A stretch of 64,000 bases of DNA from Ignavibacteriales bacterium (GCA_016192345.1 JACPUH010000012.1:5342-69341), one strand, 5' to 3'. Shown: positions 2,556 to 38,635, counted from the stretch's first letter. A program made the numbers and translations. Notes: a model not told the origin generated them from the sequence alone.

Positions 2556-2601
2556 AGAGACGGGAAGTAGCTTTCCTCCTTCTGAGAGTTGGTTGCCCTT
2601 T

Positions 2602-3855: not shown

Positions 3856-3967
3856 AGAAGACTGTTCCCATGCTGATTGCTCTTGAGCATGTGTTGCAAC
3901 AAAATAAAGTTGTTGGCGGAGCGTTGAATGCTTGCTTCCTGAAGTTGTTCCGAAGGGGGGCGCGACT

Positions 3968-5062: not shown

Positions 5063-5075
5063 GGTACTCCGCCGG

Positions 5076-7220: not shown

Positions 7221-7265
7221 GACGTTGCAGTGCTGGTCGGAATCATGGTTGCTCCACCGCGCTCC

Positions 7266-9065: not shown

Positions 9066-9071
9066 GGTGTT

Positions 9072-9917: not shown

Positions 9918-10074
9918 GACTAATCTCCGAATGCCTTTCCCAAAAAGTAATTTGGTTTTTTCACCGCGAAGGACGCAGAGTGCGCCGAGAACTCAGTTGT
10001 CAAATTAGCAATTCTTGCTCTGCGATCTCCGCGCCTCTGCGGTGAGAATACAAGGTTTTTGATTTGGATCGGCA

Positions 10075-10962: not shown

Positions 10963-11181
10963 GAACACGCTGCGACCTCTGTCTCTTACGGTATCATTGA
11001 TGGCAAACCGAGTCTTCAACAGTTATCATCAGACTCGTGGAAGTGTCCCTCAATCGACTTGGGTTTTAACTGCAAAGGTCTCAGAGGATACGCAAAGCAA
11101 TGTTTCCAAAATATTTCTCTGTGTCCTCTGTGTCTTTGCGGTAATTTCCTTCCCCGCGTAGGCCCTACCAGCACAGATAGT

Positions 11182-12435
11182 TTACTCGTTCATCTCACGG
11201 ATTTTCCTCACGGCAAGTGCCTGCATCTCTTTGGCAGCCTGCTCCGGCGTTTTCGCGCGGCCCATCACGGCCTGGTACCCTGGACGCATCGCGTCCCACA
11301 CCGCCCGCAACTCGGACACCACGGGCATCAGCCTCCCACGTTTAATCTGAAGCAATGAATTTTGCAGGTTTTCGTTGGCAAGGATCTCTGGATGGCTGTA
11401 CAACGCCGTCCGGGTCGGAGCAGTCCCCAACGCCCGCACCGTCTCAAGCTGGCTCTCCTCCGACAAACAGAACTTCAGGAGATCCAGCACGAGATCAAGT
11501 TTTTCCCCCGAAAGATTGATATTCACCGAGTATCCTTTCGGGGAGGTCATGGGAGCGCACCAGAGCCCCGTCTCCATGATCATCGGGAGCGGAGCGATGC
11601 CAAGATCGATTCCCCGCTGGGCATAGCCGGCCCATGACCAATCTCCATTGATGAGCATCGCAGCCTTCCCATCCTTGAACAGTGCGTCGGCAATCTCGTA
11701 GTCAGCTTCGTTGGGGACAATCTTCTCCGTATCCCGCAATCCCCGGATGAAATGCAGGGCCTTGACCATCGCATGGTTGTCCAGCGACGGGGTCACCCCA
11801 TCCTCCTCGAAGACCCAACCGCCGAACCCTGTGTAGAACGGGATGAAGAAGAAGGGCTCAATGTAGTTCCACGCCAGCCCGTAGACATTCGGCCTCCCTG
11901 CCGTATACCCATAGTTATCTTGAATGCTCTTGCTGAGAGCTATGAGCTCGAGGTCGTTCACCGGAGGTTTCCGGATGTATTTCTTGTTGTACAACAGTGC
12001 AAGGTGGTTTCCGAATTTATCGGCGATCTGGTACAGGTGCCCCTTGTACCAAAGAAGCGATGAAGAATCGAATTCCGCCAGGTAGCTGGCCGGGAACAGA
12101 TGCTCGAGGGGCTTGATGCTCTTCGTCGCCTCATAGATCCCCACCGGATCGGAGGGACCGTAGACGAGATCGGGTCCCTGTCCCGCGATCGTCGAAATCA
12201 CATACGCGCTGCGCAATGTTTCGGTCTCCTTGAACAACTCGACGATCGTGACATCGGGATGCAGCTTCTTGTACCGGGCGATCTGCGCCTGCAGAACGGC
12301 CTGCTCATCGGGGCGCGTCTGATGCCAGATGACGATTTTCCGCTCGTCCGACCCTCCTCCCCCACATCCCAGGAGCAGGAGAAGGGAAAGGAAATGGAAC
12401 TTCCAGCTTTTGAAATATCCCGTCACGTGTGGCAT
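11182..12435 (-). CDS. malE: extracellular solute-binding lipoprotein, maltose/maltodextrin-binding (MalE-like)
   Basis: Lipoprotein signal LLLLGCGGGGS. Family 1 solute-binding protein fold features. Track start is GTG; ATG at 12435. Confidence 0.8.
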   Translation of the reverse strand: MPHVTGYFKSWKFHFLSLLLLLGCGGGGSDERKIVIWHQTRPDEQAVLQAQIARYKKLHPDVTIVELFKETETLRSAYVISTIAGQGPDLVYGPSDPVGIYEATKSIKPLEHLFPASYLAEFDSSSLLWYKGHLYQIADKFGNHLALLYNKKYIRKPPVNDLELIALSKSIQDNYGYTAGRPNVYGLAWNYIEPFFFIPFYTGFGGWVFEEDGVTPSLDNHAMVKALHFIRGLRDTEKIVPNEADYEIADALFKDGKAAMLINGDWSWAGYAQRGIDLGIAPLPMIMETGLWCAPMTSPKGYSVNINLSGEKLDLVLDLLKFCLSEESQLETVRALGTAPTRTALYSHPEILANENLQNSLLQIKRGRLMPVVSELRAVWDAMRPGYQAVMGRAKTPEQAAKEMQALAVRKIREMNE

Positions 12436-12467
12436 GAGTTTCTTCAAAGATGGTGCGGTGCTGTTGT

Positions 12468-14774: not shown

Positions 14775-14778
14775 ATCG

Positions 14779-17613: not shown

Positions 17614-17626
17614 GGTGGCTCGCCGG

Positions 17627-17806
17627 TTAAAATAGTGTGTAGATAAAAGGGGCAAGCGCGGAACCTTCCGTCAGGACGATGAGGAGACTCAGGAGCATCA
17701 GCACAACAATGATCGGGCCCAGCCACCATTTCTTCCGGACTTTCATAAAGCCCCAGAGTTCTCCCACGATCCGCAACCGGGACTTGGCGTGTTTGAGAAA
17801 TTTCAT
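17627..17806 (-). CDS. unannotated 59-aa small membrane protein, SxtK-like (DUF5989-type) carbamoyltransferase-associated protein
   Basis: Hand-translated, below track cut-off: MKFLKHAKSRLRIVGELWGFMKVRKKWWLGPIIVVLMLLSLLIVLTEGSALAPFIYTLF. KVRKKWWL-PI and APFIYTLF motifs match, from memory, the small protein co-occurring with NodU/CmcH carbamoyltransferases. Confidence 0.5.
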   Translation of the reverse strand: MKFLKHAKSRLRIVGELWGFMKVRKKWWLGPIIVVLMLLSLLIVLTEGSALAPFIYTLF

Positions 17807-20149: not shown

Positions 20150-20339
20150 GGTGATCCGGTCATCCGAGCGACGATGAAAAAAATACTGCGGCAACAACCC
20201 CGCTCCCTTCAGTGCACTCCTTTGCTCTTCGGGAGAAAGAGGGGTTCGTGCCGACAATTTGATTTTCAGACAAATACTTGATATTGTTCCGGCGTCATCG
20301 ATCCTGCCTTCACCATCACTCTTCGAAAGCTCACCCTGC

Positions 20340-24475: not shown

Positions 24476-26365
24476 TTACTTCAACAGCACCATCCGTTTC
24501 ACTTCCCGGAAGAGTCCGGCCCGCAGCTCGTAGAAATACACACCCGTCGGCAGCGACGAGGCCTCGAACAGCGTCACGTGATTCCCCGCCGGCTGAATCT
24601 CATTGACCAGGTCGGCCACAACTTGCCCGAGCAGGTTGAAGACCCGGAGTCGGACCTGTTCCTGCTGTGGCAACGAGTATTTGACATGGGTCGATGGGTT
24701 GAACGGATTGGGGTAGTTCTGGAAGAGGGTGAAGACCCCCGGAGTTCCCACGGCGATGTCATCGTCAATGCCCGTCAGACCGTCAAAACTTTCGACGGGC
24801 ATCGGGGCATTCTTCTGCCACACATCGATCGGCAGCGTGTACGTCCGTGGAAATGTCTGCGATGAAAGCGGACGTATGAACCGCGAACGGTAGGGAGCCT
24901 GAACGCCCAGTCCTCCGCCTTCGGAGACCGAACCGGTCCCCGTCCCGCCATGCACATAGGTCATGGTGTACTGCAGGTTGTAGTGGGCGGGCCCGCGGAT
25001 ATTCATTCTTCCTGAATAAATGGAATCGCCGGCCACTGCATCGGGGGCGAGCCCGTCATCCTTGAGAACGAGATCCGGTGGATTGCCCTGGAAGGACTTC
25101 TGGAGGGCATCCTGCCAGGTGATTTTCGCCGTATCGACACCGCGAACGAAGGGATCGATGTAGGCCATGGCCGGCCGCATATCGTACCGGAAAACCACGG
25201 TCACCGTATCCCCCGTCTTGATCGTCCCGGCCAACGGAATGCTGCTGAACCGAAACGCGGGGGTCTGCAGATTCCCTCCGGCCCCGAGGTTGAACTTCCT
25301 GTTGCCATCGCCGCTTTCCGACGGATGGTCGTAGGCAAATCCATCTCTCGTGCTGGTGGACCCGCTGTGGATGTACCCCGGGAACCTCGCTGTGGCTCCC
25401 GCGGAATCGAAATCGATGAAGAACTTGAAATCGAGATTGTCGAACGTTCCGCCGGTATAGGGGATCGCAACCTCGTACGTCTCCGTTCCCGGGACGCGTA
25501 TCATCTTCGTCCCCCCCCAGCTGTTGAACGCTCCGCGCACCTCTATGGAGTCGCCGTTCGATCTCTGGAACCATCCCATGGTGGCGAAGGTCGACATATC
25601 CACGCGCCACAGGATCGATCCGCTAGTGGGCGTATTGACAACCTCATCGGCGTCAAAATAGGTGAGGTTCACCGAGCCGCCCCCTGTCGGAACCGTATAC
25701 GTCTTGTTATCGCCCCCCTCCCAATCCGATCCGCCCCGCGGGGTCTTCAGATACTTATACTGGATCTGCGTTCCTTCCAGCATCGTGACCGATTTGGAAT
25801 AGATGCTGTCGGTGGCCCCTTTCTTGAGGGTATCGGTTGAGTTCCCCCAATCGTTGAAGCTCCCTGCCACGCGGACGATATCCCCGCTTCCCGGCAGGAA
25901 ACTTTCCTCGAGCATTTTCACGCGCATATTCACGCGGAAGGTGACCGCAACATTAGCCGCGGGCGTAAACACCGAGTCGTTGTCAAACCAGACGACCGGA
26001 AGCGTTTGGGCTCCCGCAACGACCGTGTACGTCTTGTTGTCCCCGCCTTCCCAGTCGAGACCGCCTCGCAGGGTTTTTAGAAACTTATATTGAATGCTTC
26101 CGGCAGCCAGGGAGACGGTTTTTGTGTAAATGCTGTCGCCCGGGCCGGAGGATTTCAACGTATCCGTTGAGTTCCCCCAGTCATTGAAGCTCCCTGCCAC
26201 CCGGACAATATCTCCGGCGCCGGGATTAAATGTCCCCTCGCGCATCTTGATGCTCATATTGACGCGAACTGTCACACTGTTCTGCGCTTCGACGACGGCG
26301 TCAAAAGCGATCGGAACAATGAAGATGGCGAAGGCGAGACAAGAGTAGAGTATGTTCCTACGCAT
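24476..26365 (-). CDS. T9SS-secreted surface protein with tandem CBM20/CBM48-like starch-binding modules (non-catalytic, SusE/F-like role inferred)
   Basis: Signal peptide. Two near-identical ~109-aa modules (VRVAGSFNDWGNSTDTLK...IQYKFLKT / IQYKYLKT) plus a third degenerate module (VRGAFNSWGG). No catalytic motifs. C-terminal T9SS CTD NYPNPFNPSTHVKYSLP...GVYFYELRAG. Confidence 0.7.
   Translation of the reverse strand: MRRNILYSCLAFAIFIVPIAFDAVVEAQNSVTVRVNMSIKMREGTFNPGAGDIVRVAGSFNDWGNSTDTLKSSGPGDSIYTKTVSLAAGSIQYKFLKTLRGGLDWEGGDNKTYTVVAGAQTLPVVWFDNDSVFTPAANVAVTFRVNMRVKMLEESFLPGSGDIVRVAGSFNDWGNSTDTLKKGATDSIYSKSVTMLEGTQIQYKYLKTPRGGSDWEGGDNKTYTVPTGGGSVNLTYFDADEVVNTPTSGSILWRVDMSTFATMGWFQRSNGDSIEVRGAFNSWGGTKMIRVPGTETYEVAIPYTGGTFDNLDFKFFIDFDSAGATARFPGYIHSGSTSTRDGFAYDHPSESGDGNRKFNLGAGGNLQTPAFRFSSIPLAGTIKTGDTVTVVFRYDMRPAMAYIDPFVRGVDTAKITWQDALQKSFQGNPPDLVLKDDGLAPDAVAGDSIYSGRMNIRGPAHYNLQYTMTYVHGGTGTGSVSEGGGLGVQAPYRSRFIRPLSSQTFPRTYTLPIDVWQKNAPMPVESFDGLTGIDDDIAVGTPGVFTLFQNYPNPFNPSTHVKYSLPQQEQVRLRVFNLLGQVVADLVNEIQPAGNHVTLFEASSLPTGVYFYELRAGLFREVKRMVLLK
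25620..26270. repeat. intragenic tandem duplication (2 x ~327 bp) encoding the two near-identical CBM-like modules
   Basis: The repeated peptide VRVAGSFNDWGNSTDTLK recurs 109 residues apart. Antisense ORFs at 25803 and 26130 share VEFPQSLKLPATRTISP, confirming near-identity at nucleotide level. Unit boundaries approximate. Confidence 0.6.
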
Positions 26366-26464: not shown

Positions 26465-27568
26465 TTAAAAGTGAACACTGATGGTAACCGTGTGAGCGTT
26501 TTGCAGTCTTCCAAAATCCTCGTACGCGTAATCGATCCGTGTCGCCACACCCGTGGAGATTTCGTACCGAAGTCCCCCACCGACGGTAAAGCGTTCTTCG
26601 CTCTCCGCAACGCCCAGCGCCTTGTAGCCGCCCCGCAGGGAAACCATCCGTTGCAGGAGAGAATACTCGAATCCGACATTGACGCTCTCGGAGTTGTCGT
26701 TCGGGTGGGCGGCATCCAGGGCGATGATAAGGCGCTGGTCGTCGTTCGCCACCGGCTCGTAGGAAAATCCGATGCGGAGGTTCAGGGGAAGATCGAAACG
26801 ATCCGTCGTCAGGTTGGCGTTGATGTTCGGATTGTTCCCCTTGTTCGGGGAGATATCTTTCTGCACCAGGAGGTCGTCTCCCGTGATCTGCATCTTCTGA
26901 CCGAAATTCGAGACGCCGGCGCCGAAGGTCACGCCGGGGAACGGCGTGGTAAAGAGCGTGCCGATGTCGATGGCAAAGCCGGAGGCGCTCGAGTTCCAGA
27001 TCGTCTCCTGCACGTATTTTGCATTCACGCCGATGGAAAACCAGTCCGTCAGATTCCTCGCGTACGAAACACCGAAGGCAAAGCTCCCGGCTGTAAAGAA
27101 ATCCCCGGTCCCGTCGGGCTGGTCCTCGGTTGTCCGCTCCATCTCGCCGTAGGAGAGCATCGTCAGATTGAAACCCAAAACCCCCAGTCCTTCAAACGGG
27201 AGAACGATCCCGGCATAATTAAAGTCGATATCGGCGACCCAGTCTGCATGATACACCATCGCCTCGCGCGCGGTGAGACGGGCCATGCCCCCAGGGTTCC
27301 AGTACATCGACGACGCGTCGTCGGAGAGGGAGACAAAGGCTCCCCCCATGCCGAGCGCGCGGGCCCCGACCGGAATGCTCAGGAACTTTGCAGCCGTGGT
27401 TCCAATCTTCGTCACCGGTTGTCCCGTCATGGTGACGGGGAGTGCGGAAGCGAGCAGGATCAATCCGCTCCAAAGTATCAGTATGCGTTTCACGAACGAT
27501 CTCCTTTTATTCCCGGCAGAGGCTGCATGCAGAGCCCCGGACCGGTACGTCCCGTTCCAGGCCGTCAT
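26465..27568 (-). CDS. T9SS-associated FadL-like outer-membrane beta-barrel, PorV/PorQ-like (or PorP/SprF-like)
   Basis: Signal peptide. N-terminal FLSIPVGARALGMGGAFVSLSDDASSMYWNPGGMA (NPA-type hatch motif). Alternating beta-strand pattern to a C-terminal aromatic residue. 4-nt overlap with the upstream T9SS cargo gene. Alternative GTG start at 27493. Confidence 0.5.
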   Translation of the reverse strand: MTAWNGTYRSGALHAASAGNKRRSFVKRILILWSGLILLASALPVTMTGQPVTKIGTTAAKFLSIPVGARALGMGGAFVSLSDDASSMYWNPGGMARLTAREAMVYHADWVADIDFNYAGIVLPFEGLGVLGFNLTMLSYGEMERTTEDQPDGTGDFFTAGSFAFGVSYARNLTDWFSIGVNAKYVQETIWNSSASGFAIDIGTLFTTPFPGVTFGAGVSNFGQKMQITGDDLLVQKDISPNKGNNPNINANLTTDRFDLPLNLRIGFSYEPVANDDQRLIIALDAAHPNDNSESVNVGFEYSLLQRMVSLRGGYKALGVAESEERFTVGGGLRYEISTGVATRIDYAYEDFGRLQNAHTVTISVHF

Positions 27569-30500
27569 TTGATGATGGCAAACTTTCCGACTTTTTCCCC
27601 GATCCCCGGTGCATCGATGTGGTAGATATAGATCCCGTATGAAGCCGAGAGGTTATCCCGGGTCAGGAGATTCCATTCCGCGGAGCCGTTGAGCATCGTA
27701 CTGTTGTGGTCGATGGAGGCTACCAGCTCCCCCGCCACGGTGTAGATGCGAATCGTGCATTGTTGCGGCAGGCGGATGAAATGAATCGAACGCGGTCCCC
27801 GCCCCGAGTTAAACGGGTTGCGCTCCTCCCAGGTCGCGGCAGCCACGTACGGGTTCGGCACCACCCTGATCCGGTCCAGATCCGATTCCGCAAGCTCCGC
27901 GTCGACCTTTTGGCCCGTGGTTGTGAACTCGAACACATCGGAGGAACGGAAGATCTTGGAGAGAACAACCGTCGCCGTATCGCCGGCTTGCGGGCGCCGC
28001 TTGCCGTTGGTCGTGTCGAAGTTGACGCTGAAACTCCAGGTCAGCGCAAGGGAGTCTTTCGTGTCCCGCTCCAGGAAGATGATGATATCTTGTTCATCGC
28101 GGTTCGCCGTGAAGGTCCCCTCCCCTTCCGAGAGGTCGAGCTCCCAGAACGCAAAGTCGATCTGCTTGTTTTCACTCGTGTTGATCACTTTGAAATTGAC
28201 CCGCTTCGAGGGGAGCGGCGGATCGGACCCGAAGAGGGTCGACCGGACTGAATAACTGGTCGAGGTATCGGTTCCCAACGGCCCGAAGATCACTTTGTAG
28301 TCGGCCGGTTTCTGCACCCCGGTGATGGTACCGCTCTTCCACTGCTCAAAACGGTACGGCAGAACCGGGGCTCTGCTCCAGTGCGAAAGCGTCTGGTTGA
28401 CGCCGAACGTTTTCTCGTTCAGAAGAACCAACCGGAATCCGTCCGTCATCGGATGCTCCACGCCATCCTCCAGATTCCTGCTCCGGTCGATCAACGTCAA
28501 AGGAGTGCCGGCATTCGTGACGTCGGCCAGCGTGAAGCTCTTCGTCTTGAACGTATCGGGTGCATTGGCGCCGCCGGAGATCGTCGTATCTTCGAAGGTG
28601 ACCCGGTAACGATGATTGTCTTTAACTTTCGTCGGGTCGATCAGTGCGAAGCCGACCCGCCCCGTCGTGCTGCCGCTGACCAGTTCAGCCGGTGCAATGG
28701 AGGAAGGAAGATAACCGGCGACCGGCGCTTCCGGTCGTACGATGGCAACGGAGGTGCCAAAGGATTTTATGGACCCGGTGAGATTGTCGAGATTGATCTT
28801 GAGGTTGCTCTCCGCGGGGGCGATCTGGAGAGATTGAAATCCGCCATCGTACGCCCGAATGGCATAATAGTACGTTTGGCCGTTCTGGACGGTGGTATCG
28901 ACCCACGAGTGCTGCAGGCCCGTGTCGCTGCCAAGGTCGAACTGGACTCCGTTGAAGGCGATGGGATGGAACCCCTTGATGCCGTCCGCCAGGTCAAACT
29001 GAGCGATCGGCCTCAGGTAGGGGGCCGGGCTGCCGTAGGCATCCGTGACGACGCGGGCATCCTCAAAGGCAGGGTCGGTTGCCCGGTAGATTCTGTAACC
29101 CTGAAAATCTTTTGCTTTCGCGCCGGGAATTCCCTGCAGGAACCGGTCGATCGATTCTTCAGCGAGGTCATCCCAGTAGAGCGTCACCCTCCGGTCGCCC
29201 GCGACGGCCGTCATCGTCGGCTCGAGTGGCGCCTGGGCGAACTGGTAATCTTCATTGTAAGCAAGCTGCGCAAACTCCCTCTTTCTGAGAGCGTCATCCC
29301 TCGCTCCGCTGACGTTCGCATTCCCCGCACGAATGGCTGCCCCGAAGACAACGGCGTACGAGATGCGCTCAATCTGACCCGGACGCAACGGGAACAATCC
29401 CGATGAAACGAAAAGATCGCTCTCCCCCACCGGCAACAACGCAGGATTGACAAAGCTCCCCGGGATCATGAAATTAGCCCAGAAGAAAATGTCAGCCGTC
29501 GTGGTGAAGTTGATGGCGCCGGCTGCCAGGTACTGCACGTTGGTCAAACCGATCTGATCGGCCTCGGAGACGTCCGTCTTGTCGATGTTCGGCTCCCCTG
29601 GAAAGGGAGTCCCCGCACCCGAGGTCGGACGCCCATTCCCTTCGCCAGTATCGCCGGTCCCGGGGGCGCCATCCAATCCCACATCGTCCGTCAGCGGATT
29701 CCAGTCACCGTCGTTATCGATGCCGTCATCCCGGGATTCGTCGATCATCTCGTCGATCCCTTCGTCGATGCCTGCATCTTTCGCTCCATCCCGGTTAAGG
29801 TACTTCTTGCCGACATCCTCGGGTCCAACGTCATACAGAATGACGCCGGTCCCGGGCACGCGGAATCGCTTGTAAGAATCGCTGGCCGCCTGGGTAACCA
29901 TCGCAGCGGTCACGGCCGGCCAAGCGCCATGGGCGTTCCCGTCGTTATCGATGTTATCCTTGAACTTCCTGCCGATGTCCTGCGTCCGGAGCGCGATCAG
30001 GTGGATGATACCCCCCTGCAGTGGATCGGTTTCCGGATTGGGAGGCCACCGGTTCCATTTTCGTCCCGTCACTTCGTCGTTGTCGGACTGGGTCACCATG
30101 GCCGCGGTGACGGTCGGACTGTTCGATTCGCCGTTCCCGTTGTCATCCAACCCATTGGCATATCCCACACCCGCCTGTTGACCGAACGCGATGTGCGTCG
30201 AGTCTTCGTCGATGAGGCCGTTCTTGTTATTGTCGATCCCATCACCGCTCGTTTCACCCTGGATCAGGGACGAGGTAACCTTCGGCCCCAACGATTCTCC
30301 ATCCCCGTCGTTATCGACACGGTCCACCGCGTTGCCGGGCGTCTCCAGGTAGAGTGTTGCAGCGGCGCCGACAAGCGCTCCCTGGAAGGAGGGATTCGAA
30401 CTGACGCCGTCGTTATCAAGGGAGAATGCAACGTCCCGCAAAAGGTCGAAATCGGGCGCATCGTCCTGGGAATCCCCATCGCCCCCGACGAAGTCGGCCA

Positions 30501-31254
30501 GCCAGAGAGTGACGCCGGTTTTCTGAATGGGTTTGGTCCCGTCGTTCTTCACTTCATGAATAAAGAAGACGGCATCCGCAACGGAAACCTGCGACCATTG
30601 GAGCACGCGGGAATCGATGATGAGACCCAGCCCCTTTCGTCCCGGATCGGTCGTGTCGGGTGTGTAGTTCCACCGGTCGTAGTTATTGTCCCCCACCCGG
30701 TAGTACATTTCCTGGTCGGCGCTGAACTGGTTCTTGCCGAAGTATCCGTTCCACGCTCCCCTCCAGCCGGGATCCACCTGGTCCGACTGCTTGTCGGGCC
30801 AGAAGGAGGGCCAGGTGTCGGGTTCATCGCTCTTGGCGATCTTGTTGGCCTGGACGTTGAAGTAGCCCGGGATCGGTTCCAGATTCCACGAGCCGCCGGC
30901 GGGGCTTTGGCGATAAGTAGGAAGGTCGATGATGCGCGCCGTCGCACCGTCGTTCAATTGCACTTCGCCGCCGACGAACAACCCGACTAGGGCAATATAC
31001 ACGCGACCGGTGTTCTTCGGCCATTCGTAGGGAACCCCCTGCCCGGCTCCGGTCCGGCCTGAGAAACAGAAGTTGAAGACGCTGGTGCGAACGTTGTTGC
31101 CGTCGATTTCCGTCCGCCGCCGGAAGCTGGCGTCGACGCGCTCCTTGCTGGGGACGTGGACTTGTCCGGAAAGCTCGGAGGAAATCACCAACACCATGAG
31201 CATCCCGAGACCAAATAGCCTTGTTCTTACGTGCATTCCCTGTTCTCCGATCAT
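27565..31254 (-). CDS. large secreted surface protein with thrombospondin type-3-like Ca-binding repeats and T9SS-type C-terminal domain
   Basis: 1229 aa. Many DxDxDGxxD repeats (VDNDGDGES, GIDNDGDWNPLTDDVGLDG). Internal repeat TVTAAMVTQ x2. C-terminal VVPNPY...IRIYTVAGELV...GIYIYHI sorting-domain-like region. Likely true start at the second Met (31236). Confidence 0.6.
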   Translation of the reverse strand: MIGEQGMHVRTRLFGLGMLMVLVISSELSGQVHVPSKERVDASFRRRTEIDGNNVRTSVFNFCFSGRTGAGQGVPYEWPKNTGRVYIALVGLFVGGEVQLNDGATARIIDLPTYRQSPAGGSWNLEPIPGYFNVQANKIAKSDEPDTWPSFWPDKQSDQVDPGWRGAWNGYFGKNQFSADQEMYYRVGDNNYDRWNYTPDTTDPGRKGLGLIIDSRVLQWSQVSVADAVFFIHEVKNDGTKPIQKTGVTLWLADFVGGDGDSQDDAPDFDLLRDVAFSLDNDGVSSNPSFQGALVGAAATLYLETPGNAVDRVDNDGDGESLGPKVTSSLIQGETSGDGIDNNKNGLIDEDSTHIAFGQQAGVGYANGLDDNGNGESNSPTVTAAMVTQSDNDEVTGRKWNRWPPNPETDPLQGGIIHLIALRTQDIGRKFKDNIDNDGNAHGAWPAVTAAMVTQAASDSYKRFRVPGTGVILYDVGPEDVGKKYLNRDGAKDAGIDEGIDEMIDESRDDGIDNDGDWNPLTDDVGLDGAPGTGDTGEGNGRPTSGAGTPFPGEPNIDKTDVSEADQIGLTNVQYLAAGAINFTTTADIFFWANFMIPGSFVNPALLPVGESDLFVSSGLFPLRPGQIERISYAVVFGAAIRAGNANVSGARDDALRKREFAQLAYNEDYQFAQAPLEPTMTAVAGDRRVTLYWDDLAEESIDRFLQGIPGAKAKDFQGYRIYRATDPAFEDARVVTDAYGSPAPYLRPIAQFDLADGIKGFHPIAFNGVQFDLGSDTGLQHSWVDTTVQNGQTYYYAIRAYDGGFQSLQIAPAESNLKINLDNLTGSIKSFGTSVAIVRPEAPVAGYLPSSIAPAELVSGSTTGRVGFALIDPTKVKDNHRYRVTFEDTTISGGANAPDTFKTKSFTLADVTNAGTPLTLIDRSRNLEDGVEHPMTDGFRLVLLNEKTFGVNQTLSHWSRAPVLPYRFEQWKSGTITGVQKPADYKVIFGPLGTDTSTSYSVRSTLFGSDPPLPSKRVNFKVINTSENKQIDFAFWELDLSEGEGTFTANRDEQDIIIFLERDTKDSLALTWSFSVNFDTTNGKRRPQAGDTATVVLSKIFRSSDVFEFTTTGQKVDAELAESDLDRIRVVPNPYVAAATWEERNPFNSGRGPRSIHFIRLPQQCTIRIYTVAGELVASIDHNSTMLNGSAEWNLLTRDNLSASYGIYIYHIDAPGIGEKVGKFAIIK

Positions 31255-31294
31255 ACGTGAATAACCGGGGCGGTATGGCCCGGTGTACTTCCTG

Positions 31295-33994
31295 TTAGAA
31301 GCTCAGTTCCATGCCGAATTGAATTTCCCGCGGCTCGCTGTAGAAATCCGGCCGGGTGATGAATTGAAGCACCGAGTTGATGCGATCCGGATTGCGATCC
31401 ACCGGCTCAGCCCCGAGGGCGCGCGCCGACGCACCGGCCCGGCCCGTCTGGCCGTAGACAACGACCTCGTTTCGCCGGTCCAGCACGTTGAAGACCTTCA
31501 GGAAAATATTGGCATCGATCAATCCCAGGCTGACCGTCTTATAGAGATTGAGGTCCACCGTATAGGTCGGGGGTTGCCGCCGGCTGTTCTTCTGAACCGC
31601 GCGCGACGCATCTTCACCCCGCCCCTCAGCCTGGTTGAGCGCGGGGGAATACGGGAGACCCGAGCCGTAACGCCCCAGCACGAAGACCCCCCAATCGAAC
31701 TCCCCGACCCCGAGAGAGAGATTGGCGGTATGGGATTGGTCCCAATCGAGCGGACGCAACTCGATCGAAGGCGACTCGTTGTTCTGGATCTTCCCTTGCT
31801 CTTCTTCGGGGCTCGAGTTGATCCCCTCCGCCACCTGGAAGGTGTAGGAAAAGTTCATGGAGAAAAGGCCGGAGGGACGCTTGTTGAACGTGAGGGTTAC
31901 GCCACGCGTGTTGGCATAATCGCGATTGATGTAGGTCGTATAGAACGATGTCGCCGTCGAGAGATCGCCCCGCACGGGGATCTGCGGACTCGTCGATACC
32001 CAGTCACGCGTGTCCCTGTAGAATCCGGTGATGTCGAAACCGATATCGTCCGTCAATTGCTGCTGCAGGCCAAATTCATACATCACCGTCCTCTGGGGGT
32101 TCAGGTCCGGATTGCCGTACACCCCCTGCACACCGCTCGCCGTCGTCACCTTGTACCCGGGCTTTTGATAGAGGAAACTGAACGAGGGAATCTGCAAGAA
32201 ATGTCCGTACGAAAAATGCAGGACACCCCGGTCTGTGATCGGGTAGGAGATACCAAACCGGGGACTGACGCTGTACTTGGGGCTCGACTTCTTGTACCAT
32301 TGCGCCTGGCGTTCTTCGAGGCTCAGCGCCATGTTCTCGGGTTTTTGCGGCAGGTAGACGTTCGGGTCAGCCGGATCGGCAAGCACCTGCCCGCGTGCAT
32401 CGAAATAGTCGATCCGAATCCCCGCGTTGACGATCATGCTCTCGTATTCAAGCTTGTCCTGGATATAGGCGGAGAACTCGCGGGGTTGCATCGTATACTG
32501 TTCGTGCAGCGGGCTTGTCAGGTCCGGAATGGTCGCTCTGTATCCGGAGCCCTGCGCCTCCGGAACGATCGAGTAATCGTCGAGGTACAGGCGGTGCGTC
32601 TTGAACTCAACGCCGGCTTTGACGAGATGGAGGGGCGTGACCTGGTCCGTGTAGTCCGCCTTCGCCACCAGCGTCCTGGTGTTCCGTTCGAATTGATGGA
32701 GGTTCGTTCCCGCCTTCAAAAACTCGAACAGGTCGGTGTTGAAAGCCGCCGGATCCAGGTTGTAACGCGGATCGAACGGGTCCTTGTAGAGATATTCCTG
32801 GAATCCCTTGTAGAAGTAGGAAAGGTTGACGGTATAGAAAGAGGATGCACCCAGCGTGTGCGTCCAGACGAGCGAGAGACTGTACCCCCGGTCAAACTTG
32901 TTCACATCCCCGTCGGGATTTAACTTGAAACCGTGGTTATAGTCGCGATAATCGATCTGACTGCCGATGCCGGAGAGGTTCAGCTTCATCCCCATCCCGA
33001 CCTGGTAGGTGAGCTTGGCCTGACCCGAGAGGCGTTCCCGGTTGTTCATCGGGACGAACGCGCTGTCGCCTTTCGAGCCGTCGGGAAGAAAGGCACGGAA
33101 GCCGTAGAGATGTCCGTCACTTTCATAATAGCGGATGGAGGAATAAAAACTCAACCCGGAGGCGAGGGGGAGGGGGCCACTGAGGCTTGCCTCCAGGTTC
33201 AGGTTGTCGCTCGGCCGGACGCTCTCCAGGTTTGCAAAGAGACCGTCGTTCGAAGGGGCAAAGTCGCCGGCGAGGAACGAGACCATCCCCCTAAACTTCT
33301 CACCTCCGTCTTTCGTCACCGTGTTGATGATACCCGACATGGCCTGTCCGTATTCCGCATTGAACGTCCCGCTGATCACCTGCAGCTCCTGGATGGAGCT
33401 GTTGTCGATCTGCACGGCTTGTCCCCCGTCATAGCTGTCGGAGACGGAAATGCCGTCGACCCAATACGCCACTTCACTTGAACGCCCTCCCCGGATGTGG
33501 ATGGCCCCACCCCGACCCACCGTAATACCGGCCTGCAGCGCCAAGACCTCCCCTACTTCCTGAACGGGGAGATTCCGGATCTGACCGGCATCGACGCGCG
33601 ATTCGGACGACGTGAGGTCCTTCCGGATGATCGGCCGTTCCGCCGTGACGACAACCTCCTGTTGCGATTCCAGCACAATCTCCTGGAGGGCGACATCGAC
33701 TTTTGTCGTCAGATCGATGGAAACTTTAATCCCTTCTATCGTGGTCTTGGCGTAGCCGATGAACGAGATCGCCGCAGAATACGTCCCCGGCGGGATATTC
33801 AGAATGACGTAGTAGCCGTTGAGATCCGTCGATGAGCCGTACATCGTCCCCTGCAGAACGATGTTGGCTCCCACCATCGGTTCACCGGTCTTCGCGTCCT
33901 TGACGATCCCGGCAATTTTGCCCGTTGTGCCGGCAAGAACATGGCCAACGATGAGAAAGAGAGCAACGAGAACGACGAGTGCCTTCGATTTCAT
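31295..33994 (-). CDS. TonB-dependent outer-membrane receptor with N-terminal carboxypeptidase-regulatory-like domain
   Basis: Signal peptide. CarbopepD_reg-like N-terminus (GIVKDAKTGEPMVGANIVLQGT...GYYVILNIPPGTYS). Plug region (AGITVGRGGAIHIRGGRSSEV). 22-strand barrel with C-terminal F. No SusD-like partner gene. Confidence 0.85.
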   Translation of the reverse strand: MKSKALVVLVALFLIVGHVLAGTTGKIAGIVKDAKTGEPMVGANIVLQGTMYGSSTDLNGYYVILNIPPGTYSAAISFIGYAKTTIEGIKVSIDLTTKVDVALQEIVLESQQEVVVTAERPIIRKDLTSSESRVDAGQIRNLPVQEVGEVLALQAGITVGRGGAIHIRGGRSSEVAYWVDGISVSDSYDGGQAVQIDNSSIQELQVISGTFNAEYGQAMSGIINTVTKDGGEKFRGMVSFLAGDFAPSNDGLFANLESVRPSDNLNLEASLSGPLPLASGLSFYSSIRYYESDGHLYGFRAFLPDGSKGDSAFVPMNNRERLSGQAKLTYQVGMGMKLNLSGIGSQIDYRDYNHGFKLNPDGDVNKFDRGYSLSLVWTHTLGASSFYTVNLSYFYKGFQEYLYKDPFDPRYNLDPAAFNTDLFEFLKAGTNLHQFERNTRTLVAKADYTDQVTPLHLVKAGVEFKTHRLYLDDYSIVPEAQGSGYRATIPDLTSPLHEQYTMQPREFSAYIQDKLEYESMIVNAGIRIDYFDARGQVLADPADPNVYLPQKPENMALSLEERQAQWYKKSSPKYSVSPRFGISYPITDRGVLHFSYGHFLQIPSFSFLYQKPGYKVTTASGVQGVYGNPDLNPQRTVMYEFGLQQQLTDDIGFDITGFYRDTRDWVSTSPQIPVRGDLSTATSFYTTYINRDYANTRGVTLTFNKRPSGLFSMNFSYTFQVAEGINSSPEEEQGKIQNNESPSIELRPLDWDQSHTANLSLGVGEFDWGVFVLGRYGSGLPYSPALNQAEGRGEDASRAVQKNSRRQPPTYTVDLNLYKTVSLGLIDANIFLKVFNVLDRRNEVVVYGQTGRAGASARALGAEPVDRNPDRINSVLQFITRPDFYSEPREIQFGMELSF

Positions 33995-34015: not shown

Positions 34016-35695
34016 CTATGGCTGCAACACGATACCGGCGATTACTTTTTCCTGTATCACGATGGTGGCGCGTTCGCGCACCATCGACAGGGCGCGCTGA
34101 AACCGTTCCTGTTTCTTTTCTGCGAGCAACGCGTTTGCGATTTCTTCCCTTGCTTCTTCAAACGTCTTGGCCCGTGCAGGCCTTTTTTTGAGCACTTGAA
34201 AGACCCCGTAGTATGGATCAACCCGTTCGGGACCAATGATTGTTCCCTCCCTCGCTGCAAAAATCGCCTTCCCAACCACGCCAAAATCGGACTCCGTCCC
34301 GAATCCCAGTTCACCCCCCCGTTGCGCAGCCCCCGGTCGAATGGAATATTTTCGGGCAAGCGACGCAAAATCGGCCCCCTGTTTGAGGCGGCCAAGAACC
34401 ACCACCGCTTCCTCCGGACTCCGCACAAGGATCTCTGCAACGTTGGCCGCGGCGGGGTGTTTCAGGAGATTCTTGTTCGCTACATATCGTGCGCGCAGGA
34501 TCGCTTCGTCCAAGGGATCGTTGGCCGCCTGGCTCTGGGCATCATCAGCCCATCGCTTCAGAAAATAACGGAGTCTCGGACCTTCCATTTCCCCCATAAC
34601 CACCGGATCTTCTGCCAGTCCCGCTGCCGAAGCTTCAATCAAAAAGGTCTCCCTTGCAGCAAGACCGAGGACCAGGGCCTTCAGGGACTGTGAGGACTTG
34701 ACCTGTTTCCGCTGACGCTCGCTGGTGAATTCGAGCTTTCGGAAAAAGTCACCGACCTTCCACACCCCATTCCGGAATCGGACCAGCTCATCCCCTTCAC
34801 GGCTCTTCCATTGCTGCCCCGGGCCCTCCCCATGAATCCTTCCCTCCGGGAACATTTCGCTCCATGACGCGACCAGAGCCCGGACCGTCTCCTCCCGAAA
34901 CACGGGCTCCAGTCCGGCACTCGCGGTTCGGGCGACATCGGAGAGCGTCGACTGGGTTTTTCGTTCGCGGATCGCCCTCGTCATCGATGCGCGCTGTTTT
35001 TCGTAATCCATCTGTGAGGAGAGCGGGTTCTCCACGCGATCGTCCACCCTGATAATCGCGTAGCCGACCCCGATGTTCACCGGCTCGGAGAGTGCACCCA
35101 CCGGAAGGGCAAAGGCTGTCTGCTCGAAGGCAGGGTCCGTTTCCCCGTATCCGACCATTCCGAGGAGACCGCCATTGTGTGCAAGTCCCGGATCCTCAAA
35201 CACCTCGCGCGCCAGCGCATCGAACGTCGTACCGGCCTCCAGGCGTCTCTTGAGGGTTTCTGCCTCCGGGAGGGTACGGCCGTAGACATAGCGTGCGCGG
35301 ACTTTCGTATTCATCGCGCGGAACTCCCGGTGCAGCTCCTCTTCCGTCACGGAAAGCGTATCGAGGATACTGCGCGTCCATCCGTTCAACAGCGCCTGAG
35401 TCCGGATGGATTTCAGCATGGAGGTCGCCTGCTCGTCGTTCTTCCAGCCGCGTGCCTCGCATTCCTCGAGAATCAACACTTCGTTGACCATGTTCTCCAC
35501 GATCGACTTCCGCAGGACGATATTGTCACGCGCACCCGAGGTCTCGAGGTAGATCCGATAGCGCTCGGCGAAATCCCGGGCAAGGACGGATTTCCCGTTG
35601 ACCACTGCTACCGCAGAGTCGTCACTTCGGCTGCAGCCGAGGAACAGCCCCATCATCAACAGGAGTGTGTAATCCAGGTGCAGACGGACCTTCAT
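34016..35695 (-). CDS. SurA/PrsA-like periplasmic peptidyl-prolyl isomerase (parvulin domains), lipoprotein
   Basis: Lipoprotein signal LGCS from ATG at 35695 (MKVRLHLDY...). Parvulin-like regions (AHNGGLLGMVGYGETDPAFEQTAF; AQRGGELGFGTESDFGVVGKAIF). ATG overlaps the upstream gene stop (ATGA). Confidence 0.75.
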   Translation of the reverse strand: MKVRLHLDYTLLLMMGLFLGCSRSDDSAVAVVNGKSVLARDFAERYRIYLETSGARDNIVLRKSIVENMVNEVLILEECEARGWKNDEQATSMLKSIRTQALLNGWTRSILDTLSVTEEELHREFRAMNTKVRARYVYGRTLPEAETLKRRLEAGTTFDALAREVFEDPGLAHNGGLLGMVGYGETDPAFEQTAFALPVGALSEPVNIGVGYAIIRVDDRVENPLSSQMDYEKQRASMTRAIRERKTQSTLSDVARTASAGLEPVFREETVRALVASWSEMFPEGRIHGEGPGQQWKSREGDELVRFRNGVWKVGDFFRKLEFTSERQRKQVKSSQSLKALVLGLAARETFLIEASAAGLAEDPVVMGEMEGPRLRYFLKRWADDAQSQAANDPLDEAILRARYVANKNLLKHPAAANVAEILVRSPEEAVVVLGRLKQGADFASLARKYSIRPGAAQRGGELGFGTESDFGVVGKAIFAAREGTIIGPERVDPYYGVFQVLKKRPARAKTFEEAREEIANALLAEKKQERFQRALSMVRERATIVIQEKVIAGIVLQP

Positions 35696-37572
35696 GGATG
35701 AGCCTGCCTCAAAATGACTCCGGACTTCGGAGATACCTTGGTGGAAAGCCGCCCCTTCACCGGTGACACGCTTTCGCCGGTCAGCACGTTCGACCATTTC
35801 GCTCCCCGACCGTCCTCCGGGACGTTGTACCAATGTTCCTGCTCCGCCCCACTATTATTGAGAATGACCAGGACCCTCTCCTTCTCCAGCTCGCGCACGT
35901 ACGCGACCAAGTCGCGCCCATCGTCCGTCGTGACAAATGAGAGCGTGCCGGTCCGGAGCGCCGGAAGCGATTGACGAACACGTCCAAGCTGTGAGTACCA
36001 ATCGTGGAGGTCCTTATTGAATTTGTTCTCATCGAGCGGGCGCGCGGTTCCGAAGGGGTGGCTCCGCTCGGGCGCGTACGCAAGATCGTCCCAGAGCATG
36101 GGCTTTCGGCAGTCGGGATCGTCCGCACCCCACATGCCGGCCTCCGTGCCGTAGTAGATCGTCGGGGCGCCAACGAACGTCAACTGGAAGAGGGCCATGA
36201 GTTTTTGCGTCTGGAGCTCCCCCTTCTCCGGCTTGCGAAGGTCGTACGATCGGTTATCGTTGAGGCCCACACGCTTGTCGTAACTCAAGTCCGGGTTGAC
36301 GATCCGTGAACCGAGCCGGTCCGTGTCATGGCTGTCGTACAGGTTCATCAACGCCTGGTTGTTGGAGGTGCGGCATGCGGCGAGAAGGGCCTCCAGGCGT
36401 TTGGAAAATTCCGAGGCCGTGATCTTCGTCCCTTTTCCCGCAAAGAACCGGACCGCCTCCCTCGCCCACCGGTAGTTCATCACCGCATCGAACACATCCC
36501 CCTTCAGCCAGGGGGCGGGATTGAACATCTTCTCGTTGTTCCAGTCCTCCCACCAGACCTCCCCCACCAGGTACCCTTCCGGGTTGATGGAGCGGACCCA
36601 CGTTCGAAACTCGCCCCAGAACAGGGGATTGACCATCTCGGCCACATCCAGGCGCCATCCGTCGATGCCATCCTCAGGGTTGCCGTCGCCGTTCGGGTCC
36701 ATCCAGCGCTGCACCACGGCGCGCATGTGCTCCTTTGGACCCGTCACGATCCCCCGGTCGTCCTCGCGCACCTCCGGCAATTCCTTCACGCCGTTCCATC
36801 CTTCATAATCGAACTCATTCTCCTCCGTGCGCGGGTCATCCCAGCGTTTGATGGTGAACCAGTCTTTGTAGGGCGATCGCTCCTGGTTTCGCTGCACATC
36901 CTGGAACGCCCAGAAGGTCCTTCCGACATGGTTGAAGACGCCGTCGATGATGAGTTTCATCCCGCGCGCGTGCGTCTCCTTGATCAGCTTCAGGAACAAC
37001 AGATCGGCCGATGTCCATCGCCATGTGGATGGGTCGCCGTGCCGTTCCGCCGCCCAGAGCGCTTCGTCCCCATCCGGATCGGGACCGAAGTTGTTATCGA
37101 TATGATGGTACATCGCCGCATCGTATTTGTGGAGCGAGGGGGATTCAAATATGGGGTTGAAATACAGCGCCGTCACCCCCAGACCCTTCAGGTAGTCGAT
37201 CTTGTCGATGACCCCCTGAAGGTCCCCTCCGTACCGTCGCTGCTGAACGTGGACGTAGAATCCCTTCCCGTCGGCACGTTCCCAAGGCTGCAATTCAAAC
37301 CAATCATGGGTCCAGTCGCTGATCTTCCACCCGGGCGCGATCTCACGGGGCCATGAGCCGACAAGATCCCTCGGACGGGGATCGTTCCCCCTATCCCCGT
37401 TCCGGAAACGCTCCGGGAAGATCTGGTACCAGACGGCATTGCGCGACCATCCCGGCGGTTCGGAGAACGGTGTTGCTTCATAAGCTCCCGGGGAACGGCC
37501 GGCGATGAATCCAAGACAGAGAAACCCTGCACCGGTCAACCACATCGCTAGACTGCTTCGGGAAACCTTCAT
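35692..37572 (-). CDS. GH13 alpha-amylase family enzyme (secreted)
   Basis: GH13 regions GVTALYFNPIFESP, KLIIDGVFNHVG, GWRLDVAEMV. Signal peptide from ATG at 37572 (MKVSRSSLAMWLTGAGFLCLGF). Confidence 0.8.
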   Translation of the reverse strand: MKVSRSSLAMWLTGAGFLCLGFIAGRSPGAYEATPFSEPPGWSRNAVWYQIFPERFRNGDRGNDPRPRDLVGSWPREIAPGWKISDWTHDWFELQPWERADGKGFYVHVQQRRYGGDLQGVIDKIDYLKGLGVTALYFNPIFESPSLHKYDAAMYHHIDNNFGPDPDGDEALWAAERHGDPSTWRWTSADLLFLKLIKETHARGMKLIIDGVFNHVGRTFWAFQDVQRNQERSPYKDWFTIKRWDDPRTEENEFDYEGWNGVKELPEVREDDRGIVTGPKEHMRAVVQRWMDPNGDGNPEDGIDGWRLDVAEMVNPLFWGEFRTWVRSINPEGYLVGEVWWEDWNNEKMFNPAPWLKGDVFDAVMNYRWAREAVRFFAGKGTKITASEFSKRLEALLAACRTSNNQALMNLYDSHDTDRLGSRIVNPDLSYDKRVGLNDNRSYDLRKPEKGELQTQKLMALFQLTFVGAPTIYYGTEAGMWGADDPDCRKPMLWDDLAYAPERSHPFGTARPLDENKFNKDLHDWYSQLGRVRQSLPALRTGTLSFVTTDDGRDLVAYVRELEKERVLVILNNSGAEQEHWYNVPEDGRGAKWSNVLTGESVSPVKGRLSTKVSPKSGVILRQAHP

Positions 37573-37594: not shown

Positions 37595-38635
37595 TCAGGC
37601 AATTGCCTCGATCTGCTTCCGATGCATGGAAGCACCGCAGGTTTTGCGGACAATGAGTTTGGGGACAAACTTGGTCTGGCTCACTTTTTCTTTGGGGTTC
37701 TTCAGGCGGTCGGCAAGGGTATCGGCGGCGAGCGCCCCCATCTCATACATGGGCTGGCGCATGGTCGTCAATTCGAGGTGGGAGGCAAGTTCGATATCGT
37801 CAAAGCCGATAAGCGCGACATCGTCGGGACACTTGAGCCCCGCTTCGTTGATGGCGGCAAGGGCGCCCACCGCCTGGATGTCGCTTGCCACAACAATCGC
37901 CGTCGGCATCTCTCCTTTCAGGGAAAGAAACTGTTTCATCAACTCGTAGCCCGCGTTGCGCGTGAACCCGTCAAGTATGGGAGAACTGCTGTTCTTCACC
38001 AGCCCCGGGACGATGGCAAGGCCCGCGCCGGTCAACGCGTTCTGGAATCCCTTCAATCGTTCCCGGGCCGGTGCGCTCTCGATATTTGCATTCAGAAGTC
38101 CGATGCGCTTGTGGCCGAGTTTAATCAGGTGCGTGGTTGCATGGAACGCCCCCTCCTGGTTGTCGACTGTCAGGGAGTCAAAACTTTTATGGTATGAATC
38201 GACGACGATGACCGGCGTGCGATGTTGAAGATATTGCAGCGCAAATTCCTCCGGCATCTTCATGGAGAAGAAGAGAATGCCGTCGACCCTGCTTCTCAGT
38301 GCGTTCTGCCTCAGCGACGAAGCCACCTGATCCGGGTGGTTGACTCCGTACAGGATCAGATCGCAGTCCAGGTCCGATAACTTCGATTGGACCCCCTGCA
38401 GGATCTCCAGGAAGAAGAAGGTGGTAAAGAATGGAATGACGGCAAGGATGGAATTTGTTCGGTTGCTGGCAAGCCCGCGGGCATACGGATGGGGACGGTA
38501 ATTGAGCCGTGTTGCGACTTCGAGGACGCGGGAGCGGGTTCCATGCGATACACTTGGGTGATTGTTGAACACCCGCGAGACGGTGCCTATTCCAACGTCC
38601 GCCTCTTTGGCGATATCGTAGATGGTGACACGCAT
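37595..38635 (-). CDS. LacI-family transcriptional regulator (likely maltose/starch regulon)
   Basis: N-terminal HTH VTIYDIAKEADVGIGTVSRVFNN followed by a periplasmic-binding-protein-like sugar-binding domain. Heads the GH13 / PPIase gene array. Confidence 0.85.
   Translation of the reverse strand: MRVTIYDIAKEADVGIGTVSRVFNNHPSVSHGTRSRVLEVATRLNYRPHPYARGLASNRTNSILAVIPFFTTFFFLEILQGVQSKLSDLDCDLILYGVNHPDQVASSLRQNALRSRVDGILFFSMKMPEEFALQYLQHRTPVIVVDSYHKSFDSLTVDNQEGAFHATTHLIKLGHKRIGLLNANIESAPARERLKGFQNALTGAGLAIVPGLVKNSSSPILDGFTRNAGYELMKQFLSLKGEMPTAIVVASDIQAVGALAAINEAGLKCPDDVALIGFDDIELASHLELTTMRQPMYEMGALAADTLADRLKNPKEKVSQTKFVPKLIVRKTCGASMHRKQIEAIA

Follow-up and report, generated by a model that had tools for sequence, protein, structure and literature searches.

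The window analysed here is a 64,000 nt stretch of DNA from an Ignavibacteriales bacterium (GCA_016192345.1 JACPUH010000012.1:5342-69341), and our subject is a triad of adjoining genes on its minus strand. These encode a TonB-dependent transporter (TBDT; 31295..33994, an open reading frame (ORF) of 899 aa), a large uncharacterised protein that is predicted to be type IX secretion system (T9SS) cargo (27565..31254, 1229 aa) and a 14-strand-type barrel of the PorV/PorQ family (26465..27568, 367 aa). An earlier note on this DNA had placed the three ORFs correctly, with a 40 nt gap between the first two and, as ORFs, a 4 nt overlap between the last two. Shine-Dalgarno-like motifs and the lengths of homologues, however, led us to correct two of the starts. 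The large protein most likely begins at the second ATG (31236), which has GGAGAA upstream and gives a product of 1223 aa, the length of a 98% identical homologue (P0001); the gap to the TBDT gene is then most likely 58 nt. The barrel most likely begins at a GTG (27493) with AAGGAG 7 nt upstream and has 342 aa, as in its homologues. The 4 nt overlap therefore holds for the ORF ends, and between the genes as translated there is probably a 71 nt gap. All three genes are real: the large protein has at least 1,050 full-length homologues, and the barrel has at least 4,173.

The identification of the first gene as a TonB-dependent transporter is borne out by Pfam, which finds an N-terminal CarboxypepD_reg domain, a plug and a barrel, the last matching PF14905/PF25183. 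There is a TonB-box-like motif (EVVVTA) and a terminal Phe. We rejected membership of the SusC family because the score against TIGR04056 is 78.8 bits vs a cut-off of 368.25, and the match covers profile positions 2-206 only, that is, the N-terminal domain and the plug. A second TBDT in the window (56801-59821) has the same N-terminal layout of CarboxypepD_reg and plug and no cargo or barrel partner; a gene for a Ser/Thr kinase-tetratricopeptide repeat (TPR) protein (53681-56641) follows it.

The third gene had been described as a PorV-like barrel, and hidden Markov models place it in the PorV/PorQ family and not with PorP/SprF. It scores 224 bits against NF033709 (cut-off 90), matches the PorV family PF19572 and aligns with Flavobacterium johnsoniae PorV (6h3i_F) at E=1e-8. 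It falls below the equivalog cut-offs for PorV (NF033710, 81.6 vs 250 bits), PorQ (NF033711, 94 vs 220 bits) and PorV2 (NF052325, 80 vs 325 bits), and the BamG model is matched only weakly (22.5 bits vs 250). The search that gave the 4,173 homologues returned close orthologues only, at 60% identity or more, and offers no view of paralogues.

The large protein matches no Pfam family at E<=10 and nothing significant in NCBIfam. Its homologues are 50-98% identical; every named one is called 'hypothetical' and none carries a Pfam domain. Inspection shows a Sec signal (MHVRTRLFGLGMLMVLVISSELSGQ|V) of the signal peptidase I type and not a lipobox; the Gln that follows the predicted cleavage site is conserved in 90% or more of the homologues. 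Many Trp, Asp, Gly and Tyr residues are invariant in the family alignment. An AlphaFold2 (AF2) model of the mature protein (pLDDT 86.5, pTM 0.75) consists of an N-terminal module of ~640 aa, a fibronectin type III (FN3)-like domain, an array of immunoglobulin (Ig)-like sandwiches and a C-terminal beta-sandwich.

Full-length Foldseek searches were dominated by FN3 arrays with TM <0.1, so the N-terminal module, or head (aa 31-670; 29245..31164, minus strand), was modelled again alone (pLDDT 88.4, pTM 0.85). It has a Trp-rich core resembling a beta-supersandwich. Foldseek matches are weak but consistent (E 7e-4 to 0.1, ~290 columns, TMq ~0.2); they are to the N-terminal beta-supersandwich domains of glycoside hydrolase (GH) families GH94, GH149, GH65 and GH116, of dextran dextrinase and of the polysaccharide lyase PL26, and to the P1 domain of YidC. 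The modelled fold thus resembles carbohydrate-binding-type beta-supersandwich domains of carbohydrate-active enzymes (CAZymes). An Asp/Asn-rich insert in the head (aa ~306-565; 29560..30339, minus strand) has a mean pairwise identity of 58.5% and contains five DxDxDG-type loops, four of them found as [DN]x[DN]x[DN]G by regular expression and one (DNDGDW) by eye. Three are followed by a P-x-VT-xx-M/L helix, and short helices after the loops are present in the AF2 model. The insert has no Cys. Calcium binding by these loops is putative, resting on the motifs. The earlier note had labelled the protein a thrombospondin type-3 (TSP3) repeat protein, and this label does not survive: neither TSP_3 nor any other Pfam family is matched even at E<=10. 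The FN3-like domain and the Ig-like array (aa ~671-1120; 27895..29244, minus strand) are a probable stalk. An FN3 motif match to 3mpc was the sole result of a PDB sequence search with the family profile, and Foldseek matches this region to FN3 arrays. Conservation within the protein is lowest in the Ig array (37.5%).

The protein ends in a specialised C-terminal domain (CTD) that resembles the type-A sorting domains of the T9SS (aa 1125-1229; 27568..27882, minus strand) and finishes in GKFAIIK. The claim of a CTD stands on profile-profile kinship to Por_Secre_tail, the domain itself being under the thresholds of PF18962 and TIGR04183. By hhalign it aligns with the Por_Secre_tail-type CTDs of neighbouring cargo (94.6%, E=7e-8), it keeps the PNP motif and the C-terminal Lys, it is a beta-sandwich in the AF2 model, and paralogues in the same superfamily bear PF18962 tails. 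After the PNP motif there is an invariant insert of ~15 aa, WE-RNPF-SGRGPRS (27790-27850, aa ~1137-1155), which AF2 leaves disordered (pLDDT <50) although it is among the most conserved stretches. It is a candidate for contact with the dedicated barrel or for processing. The CTD is the most conserved part of the protein, with a mean pairwise identity of 63% compared with 51% for the whole protein, 47% for the barrel and 45%, in the same genomes, for the CTD of a neighbouring CBM20 cargo protein (described below). In ordinary type-A cargo the CTD surface that touches PorV/SprA is poorly conserved (PMC10994853), so this high constraint points to an additional specific partner. The sole invariant Cys of the protein, C1165, lies in a CTD strand.

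Three known kinds of CTD protein were considered for the large protein and rejected. PorU is not matched, nor is Peptidase_C25 (E<=0.1 in NCBIfam, E<=10 in Pfam), and there is no catalytic Cys-His pair, in agreement with the earlier description of a porU-porV-like arrangement free of gingipain or C25 motifs. The PorZ model NF052228 gives 12.8 bits vs a cut-off of 260, within the CTD only (E=0.028), and the PorZ structure 5m11 appears at Foldseek rank 14 with TM 0.09-0.13. Type-B cargo with a PorP/SprF carrier does not fit because the type-B model TIGR04131 is not matched and the adjacent gene belongs to the PorV/PorQ family.

To follow the triad across genomes, one genome per species was scanned, and at least 591 genomes encode the large-protein family. 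Synteny was counted in the best 79 species loci by mapping the window proteins onto them and clustering all locus ORFs; the denominators are the loci with enough flanking sequence. These loci come from Ignavibacteria, Melioribacter (including a metagenome-assembled genome (MAG) labelled M. roseus), Calditrichota, Neomarinimicrobiota, Fidelibacterota, Rhodothermales/Rubricoccaceae, KSB1 and Zhuqueibacter. Virtually all informative loci have their genes in the order peptidyl-prolyl isomerase (PPIase), TBDT, large protein, barrel and a protein with a family 20 carbohydrate-binding module (CBM20). The TBDT gene lies directly upstream of the large-protein gene in 66/66 loci (median gap 16 nt). The barrel gene lies directly downstream in 64/67 loci by ORF clustering (median gap 18 nt); in the other three the ORF is split or was missed by the clustering, and tblastn locates the barrel just downstream. 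The PPIase gene is upstream of the TBDT gene in all 59 related loci that could be scored, and a CBM20-type protein is encoded downstream in 52 of 54. A GH13 gene occurs within 8-10 kb in 29/37 related loci. Of the related loci flanked by 8 kb or more on each side, 15/37 have a LacI gene. Gene calls made independently, with Pfam annotation computed beforehand, agree (L080-L082). The conservation of the triad in relatives, on which the earlier proposal depended, is therefore found. Two contigs of one Neomarinimicrobiota MAG (L060 and L061) each carry the large-protein gene followed by the barrel gene, which may reflect either a second copy in the genome or a mixture of strains in the bin.

With the head as query, an exhaustive HMMER search gave 661 clusters (50% identity), of which 193 have E<=1e-30; lengths range from ~950 to ~1,390 aa. 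The long representatives show two main classes of tail. About 65 of 101 have the special CTD, ending in GKFA(I/V)IK, and ~28 of 101 have a canonical type-A CTD (NYPNPFNP...KKMLLLR); members with the canonical tail are annotated at source as 'T9SS type A sorting domain-containing protein'. Each of the six divergent members with the special tail that could be placed lies in a triad of TBDT, large protein and PorV/PorQ-family barrel. Two of these triads (L088, L094) are in starch-like loci, one (L090) is on a short contig holding the triad only and one (L093) has a gene for a PfkB-family sugar kinase upstream. The remaining two are in non-starch glycan contexts. In L086/L087 the order is LacI, TBDT, large protein, barrel, GH5 cellulase, ADP-ribosylglycohydrolase and BNR/Sortilin protein, with a T9SS alpha-L-arabinofuranosidase (GH51-type) upstream and no PPIase. 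In L091 a ROK regulator precedes the TBDT, large protein and barrel, which are followed by an ABC sugar transporter, a rotamase and a GH63/MGH1-like hydrolase.

None of the four canonical-tail paralogues sampled has a triad of its own. In L083, L085 and L092 there is no adjoining PorV-like gene (the L092 contig ends 211 nt upstream), and in L084 the paralogue (10001-12883) is found within a starch locus, some kb downstream of a complete triad and of a SusG_C-like GH13 gene. The canonical-CTD paralogues of ~950 aa (L083, L084, L085) form a subfamily that lacks the Asp-rich insert and is usually encoded by a stand-alone gene. Other tail arrangements were also seen in the superfamily. In P0363 the head lies behind an N-terminal region of ~420 aa, a right-handed beta-helix by eye, and the protein has a canonical CTD, while P0287 and P0297 are head proteins of ~830 aa with dockerin-like (GDGALDILDIV), not CTD-like, C-termini.

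Across the triads from different contexts the three partners diverge from the window proteins in parallel (TBDT 36-42%, barrel 39-51% and cargo 33-42% identity). On these identities the triad TBDTs are a subfamily of their own, the unpartnered TBDT of the window being 26% identical to the triad TBDT. The barrels of the six divergent triads score 159-221 bits against NF033709 with the same sub-equivalog pattern as the window barrel. Because the triad is kept across glycan contexts and its members diverge in parallel, the invariant unit, as judged from sequence comparison, is TBDT plus special-CTD cargo plus barrel. Regulators, enzymes, CBM proteins and the PPIase appear as substrate-specific or optional additions, following the same logic as susC/susD in polysaccharide utilisation loci (PULs).

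In the window the triad is the middle of a seven-gene array on the minus strand, in the order LacI, GH13, PPIase, TBDT, large protein, barrel and CBM20 protein. The gaps run from -2 to 99 nt, the smallest being a 2 nt ATGA overlap, and the array ends where convergent genes begin. The first gene encodes a LacI-family regulator (37595..38635; Pfam LacI and Peripla_BP_3, NCBIfam LacI-family repressors). It is followed after 22 nt by a GH13 alpha-amylase/cyclomaltodextrinase-like enzyme (35692..37572; Alpha-amylase 1.3e-53 and Malt_amylase_C). This enzyme resembles maltodextrin glucosidase/cyclomaltodextrinase in NCBIfam, and with its signal-peptide-like N-terminus from M33 it is probably periplasmic. 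The third gene (34016..35695) has the ATGA overlap with the GH13 stop and encodes a SurA/PrsA-like parvulin PPIase (Rotamase, Rotamase_2/3 and SurA_N_2 in Pfam; PrsA/PpiD/SurA-like in NCBIfam), which is a predicted lipoprotein with a lipobox-like N-terminus (LFLGC-SRSDD). The lipobox is kept in only about half of the orthologues by a crude regular expression with crude ORF starts, and the predicted lipoprotein status is firm for the window gene only. The acidic residues after the Cys resemble the surface-export signal of Bacteroidota. Both the F. johnsoniae T9SS translocon and the BAM complex (beta-barrel assembly machinery) of Bacteroidota have PPIases, and a link of these to the window PPIase is possible, though speculative.

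The last gene of the array (24476..26365) encodes a T9SS-anchored multi-CBM starch binder of 629 aa with matches to CBM_20, AMPK1_CBM, CBM53, X25 and Por_Secre_tail and a TIGR04183 score of 36.8 bits (cut-off 23). Among 63 orthologues, Por_Secre_tail is found in 60, CBM_20 in 51, CBM_48 in 33 and CBM53 in 21, with no catalytic domain. These are therefore non-catalytic T9SS cargo proteins suited to a SusE/F role. Beyond the array, a secreted GH13 of the pullulanase/debranching-like kind (14779..17655, minus strand, 958 aa; Alpha-amylase and Por_Secre_tail/FlgD_ig) has a type-A CTD (TIGR04183, 34.4 bits vs 23) and is probably the surface amylase of the same regulon, in a SusG-like role. Equivalent GH13-CTD genes adjoin the cassette in L080, L084 and L088. 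Further alpha-glucan genes occupy 405..14867 and encode, by Pfam, GH97, a CBM20-esterase, MalK, a GH57 4-alpha-glucanotransferase, GH13, MalF/G, a MalE-like substrate-binding protein and GH57-CBM20. They supply inner-membrane import and the cytoplasmic steps that follow outer-membrane uptake. The fusion of CBM20 with a 'putative esterase' (2593-3855) is unusual.

Since the first 18 kb of the window are rich in alpha-glucan genes, the triad sits in a starch-utilisation island, and it takes its function from its position inside the LacI/GH13/PPIase/CBM20 starch locus, a context absent from the earlier note. A regulator, CAZymes and surface glycan binders for one glycan are co-localised around it, as in a SusCD-type PUL. 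No SusD family member was found among the window ORFs scanned. The tRNA and Rfam scans of the window found nothing, and a promoter-like site upstream of LacI (38870-38841) is of a kind that occurs at chance level.

Several other genes of the window were noted. Two tandem plus-strand paralogues (20259-22343 and 22199-24370) combine a GDSL-lipase-like domain with TPR repeats and run convergently towards the end of the cassette; this family is also encoded immediately after the cassette in 21/37 related loci and in L080/L084, often beside a carbamoyltransferase and an SxtJ-like gene (18156-20485 in the window). Directly upstream of the LacI gene there is a respiratory cluster (39184-46472) with a multi-haem cytochrome c (647 aa), a small cytochrome c, a cytochrome b split into N- and C-terminal parts, a Rieske protein, a cyclic nucleotide-binding protein and an FAD/4Fe-4S oxidoreductase. 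The third canonical-CTD cargo gene of the window (61651-63057) encodes an FG-GAP repeat protein whose CTD is a canonical Por_Secre_tail, which indicates that the T9SS is in wide use in the organism.

Taken together, the observed gene content, order and conservation, the family memberships, the association of the special CTD with the triad and the recurrence of the triad in several glycan contexts suggest that the triad is a T9SS-dependent glycan-uptake core analogous to SusCD, present in the window in a version for alpha-glucan (starch/glycogen), and that the core is used by bacteria of the Fibrobacterota-Chlorobiota-Bacteroidota (FCB) group outside the class Bacteroidia. We give this reading a probability of about 60%. 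The earlier proposal that the SusD position beside the TBDT is taken by a T9SS cargo protein with its own PorV-like barrel gains considerable strength from the comparative evidence, and the physical complex that it envisaged is suggested by gene order.

According to this model, a LacI-type regulator would control one array. A T9SS-secreted GH13 and a T9SS-anchored CBM20/48/53 protein would bind and cut starch at the cell surface. Sec and, after it, the T9SS would export the large protein, which would leave the translocon on its own PorV/PorQ-family barrel. Its CTD would be retained and bound to this barrel, which would act as both carrier and outer-membrane anchor. This would accord with PorV being a CTD carrier and with alternative carriers being anchors (PMC10994853, PMC9143113). 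The head, with its putative Ca-stabilised Asp-rich loops and its FN3/Ig stalk, would stand beside the TBDT, capture oligosaccharides and hand them to the transporter, as SusD does. The lipoprotein PPIase may help to fold or assemble these outer-membrane components, and maltodextrins would pass to the periplasmic GH13 and the MalEFGK importer.

A number of points weigh against this model. From sequence and gene order we infer the surface location and exposure of the cargo, the retention of its CTD, the contacts between barrel and cargo and between cargo and TBDT, the binding of glycan and calcium and the role of the PPIase; the TBDT-cargo-barrel complex is likewise deduced. The CTD has no match to PF18962 or TIGR04183 at curated thresholds. 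The link between tail class and triad was seen in ten contexts beyond the orthologues, one of which (P0286) lies on a contig without upstream sequence. Promoter and terminator scans gave hits at chance level and have no bearing on co-transcription. Additionally, a canonical sus operon has been reported for M. roseus (PMC3534657), and the MAG labelled M. roseus carries the cassette (L016). The two architectures can therefore coexist, so that some lineages at least have the cassette in addition to SusCD and not simply in its place.

Three other explanations of the large protein were weighed. It might be a surface glycan-binding adhesin or tether (surface glycan-binding protein, SGBP) on its own PorV-like carrier, next to a TBDT that works alone like the MalA-type transporters of Proteobacteria, so that adjacency would reflect co-regulation. 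The binding-type head on an FN3/Ig stalk would suit such a protein, the array already contains a second dedicated starch binder, and there are shorter cargo paralogues, with ordinary CTDs, whose genes stand alone. However, the order TBDT-cargo-barrel is invariant, with gaps of ~16-18 nt, while every other neighbour varies, the triad TBDTs are a separate subfamily that diversifies together with cargo and barrel, and in our sample the special tail occurs only with the triad. We therefore consider a free-standing adhesin unlikely. The large protein might instead be a new surface CAZyme (hydrolase, lyase or transglycosylase). Many invariant Asp, Glu, Trp and Tyr residues in the head, structural neighbours that are all CAZyme domains and a family without annotation, in which an activity could be missed, would be consistent with this. 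This we find improbable, since the matched folds are the non-catalytic N-terminal supersandwich and no catalytic-domain fold was matched. The same head, at 33-42% identity, occurs in alpha-glucan, GH5/beta-glycan-type and GH63-type loci, suggesting a generic role and not a linkage-specific one, and each locus already has suitable GHs, including the T9SS GH13.

The least probable explanation by far is that the large protein and the barrel are housekeeping parts of the T9SS attachment complex, a divergent PorU-PorV or PorZ-PorQ pair lying beside a transporter by chance. The gene pair does resemble porU-porV, the faint match to the PorZ C-terminus and the 5m11 hit point the same way, and conservation is very high. 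This is outweighed by the failure to match Peptidase_C25, PorU or, at anything near its cut-off, PorZ, by an invariant Cys that is a CTD strand residue and by a barrel below both the PorV and the PorQ equivalog cut-offs. Moreover, the pair lies within LacI- or ROK-regulated catabolic loci and recurs as paralogous triads for different glycans, which would be unexpected for a single-copy part.

The proposed uptake core shares features with several known systems. As in SusC/SusD, a TBDT gene is followed by a gene for a large extracytoplasmic partner in the company of a regulator, GHs and surface glycan binders, and the arrangement recurs across glycans. In the starch version described here the CBM20 protein would correspond to SusE/F, the T9SS GH13 to SusG and the periplasmic GH13 to SusA. 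In contrast with SusC/SusD, the TBDT is not SusC, its partner is an all-beta T9SS cargo protein of ~1,200 aa and not a TPR-like SusD lipoprotein, a third, obligatory gene encodes a PorV/PorQ-family barrel, and the surface proteins depend on T9SS CTDs and not on lipid anchors. The starch cassette also includes a lipoprotein PPIase, and inner-membrane uptake is by a MalEFGK-type ABC transporter.

The pairing of a large surface CTD protein with a FadL-like barrel of the PorV/PorQ family is also found in PorU-PorV and PorZ-PorQ of Porphyromonas gingivalis. There the CTD is retained and the surface protein is bound non-covalently to the barrel; by analogy the CTD may be retained here too. The triad differs from these pairs in having no C25 sortase or PorZ match and a barrel under the equivalog cut-offs, and in being substrate-regulated and TBDT-linked, with paralogous copies per glycan. 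In type-B cargo with PorP/SprF, such as SprB-SprF (Gorasia et al. 2022, PMC9143113), a cargo gene is likewise followed by its own carrier/anchor gene and a specialised CTD correlates with a dedicated carrier. Here, however, the CTD is a type-A derivative with an insert, the carrier is of the PorV/PorQ family and linkage to a TBDT is obligatory. Finally, in the BamG-BamH pair of the Bacteroidota BAM (PMC12578637) the extracellular loops of a FadL/PorV-like 14-strand barrel hold a large extracellular protein beside another barrel, and surface PPIases are part of the assembly. That complex differs in being machinery for outer-membrane protein biogenesis, BamH is a lipoprotein, and our barrel is weak on the BamG model. 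The cassette and the protein family are not described in the full-text literature that we searched, and the genome papers on Caldithrix and Melioribacter are silent on them. Glycan-uptake loci with a TBDT, cargo of the T9SS and PorV-like carriers are each known as kinds; what is new, as far as the searched literature shows, is that they are obligatorily combined, and also the uncharacterised family of cargo proteins and its specialised CTD.

A broader claim, which we put forward tentatively and rate as possible rather than probable, is that the triad is a second, SusD-independent PUL core and a general glycan-uptake architecture of Ignavibacteria, Calditrichota, Marinimicrobia, Fidelibacterota, Rhodothermales and relatives. 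In such an architecture a T9SS-delivered capture partner would be docked on the transporter by a private barrel, with paralogues tuned to different polysaccharides, and the triad would then mark PULs in genomes of these phyla, as susCD does in Bacteroidia. Prediction of polysaccharide use in the FCB group leans on susC/susD pairs and is poor outside the class Bacteroidia. If the proposed role of the triad as a glycan-uptake core is true, it would serve as a marker for glycan-uptake loci in lineages that are abundant yet rarely cultured, such as marine Marinimicrobia, sediment Calditrichota and soil or reactor Ignavibacteria. The hypothesis can be tested in cultured M. roseus, Ignavibacterium album and Caldithrix abyssi, and growth on starch is documented for M. 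roseus and C. abyssi. The proposed role would give a function to a family of ~1,200 aa 'hypothetical' proteins encoded by 591 or more species genomes, and it would extend the T9SS logic of the dedicated carrier barrel from adhesins and attachment-complex parts to nutrient transporters. It would also mean that the surface complex of a TonB transporter can be built without surface lipoproteins.

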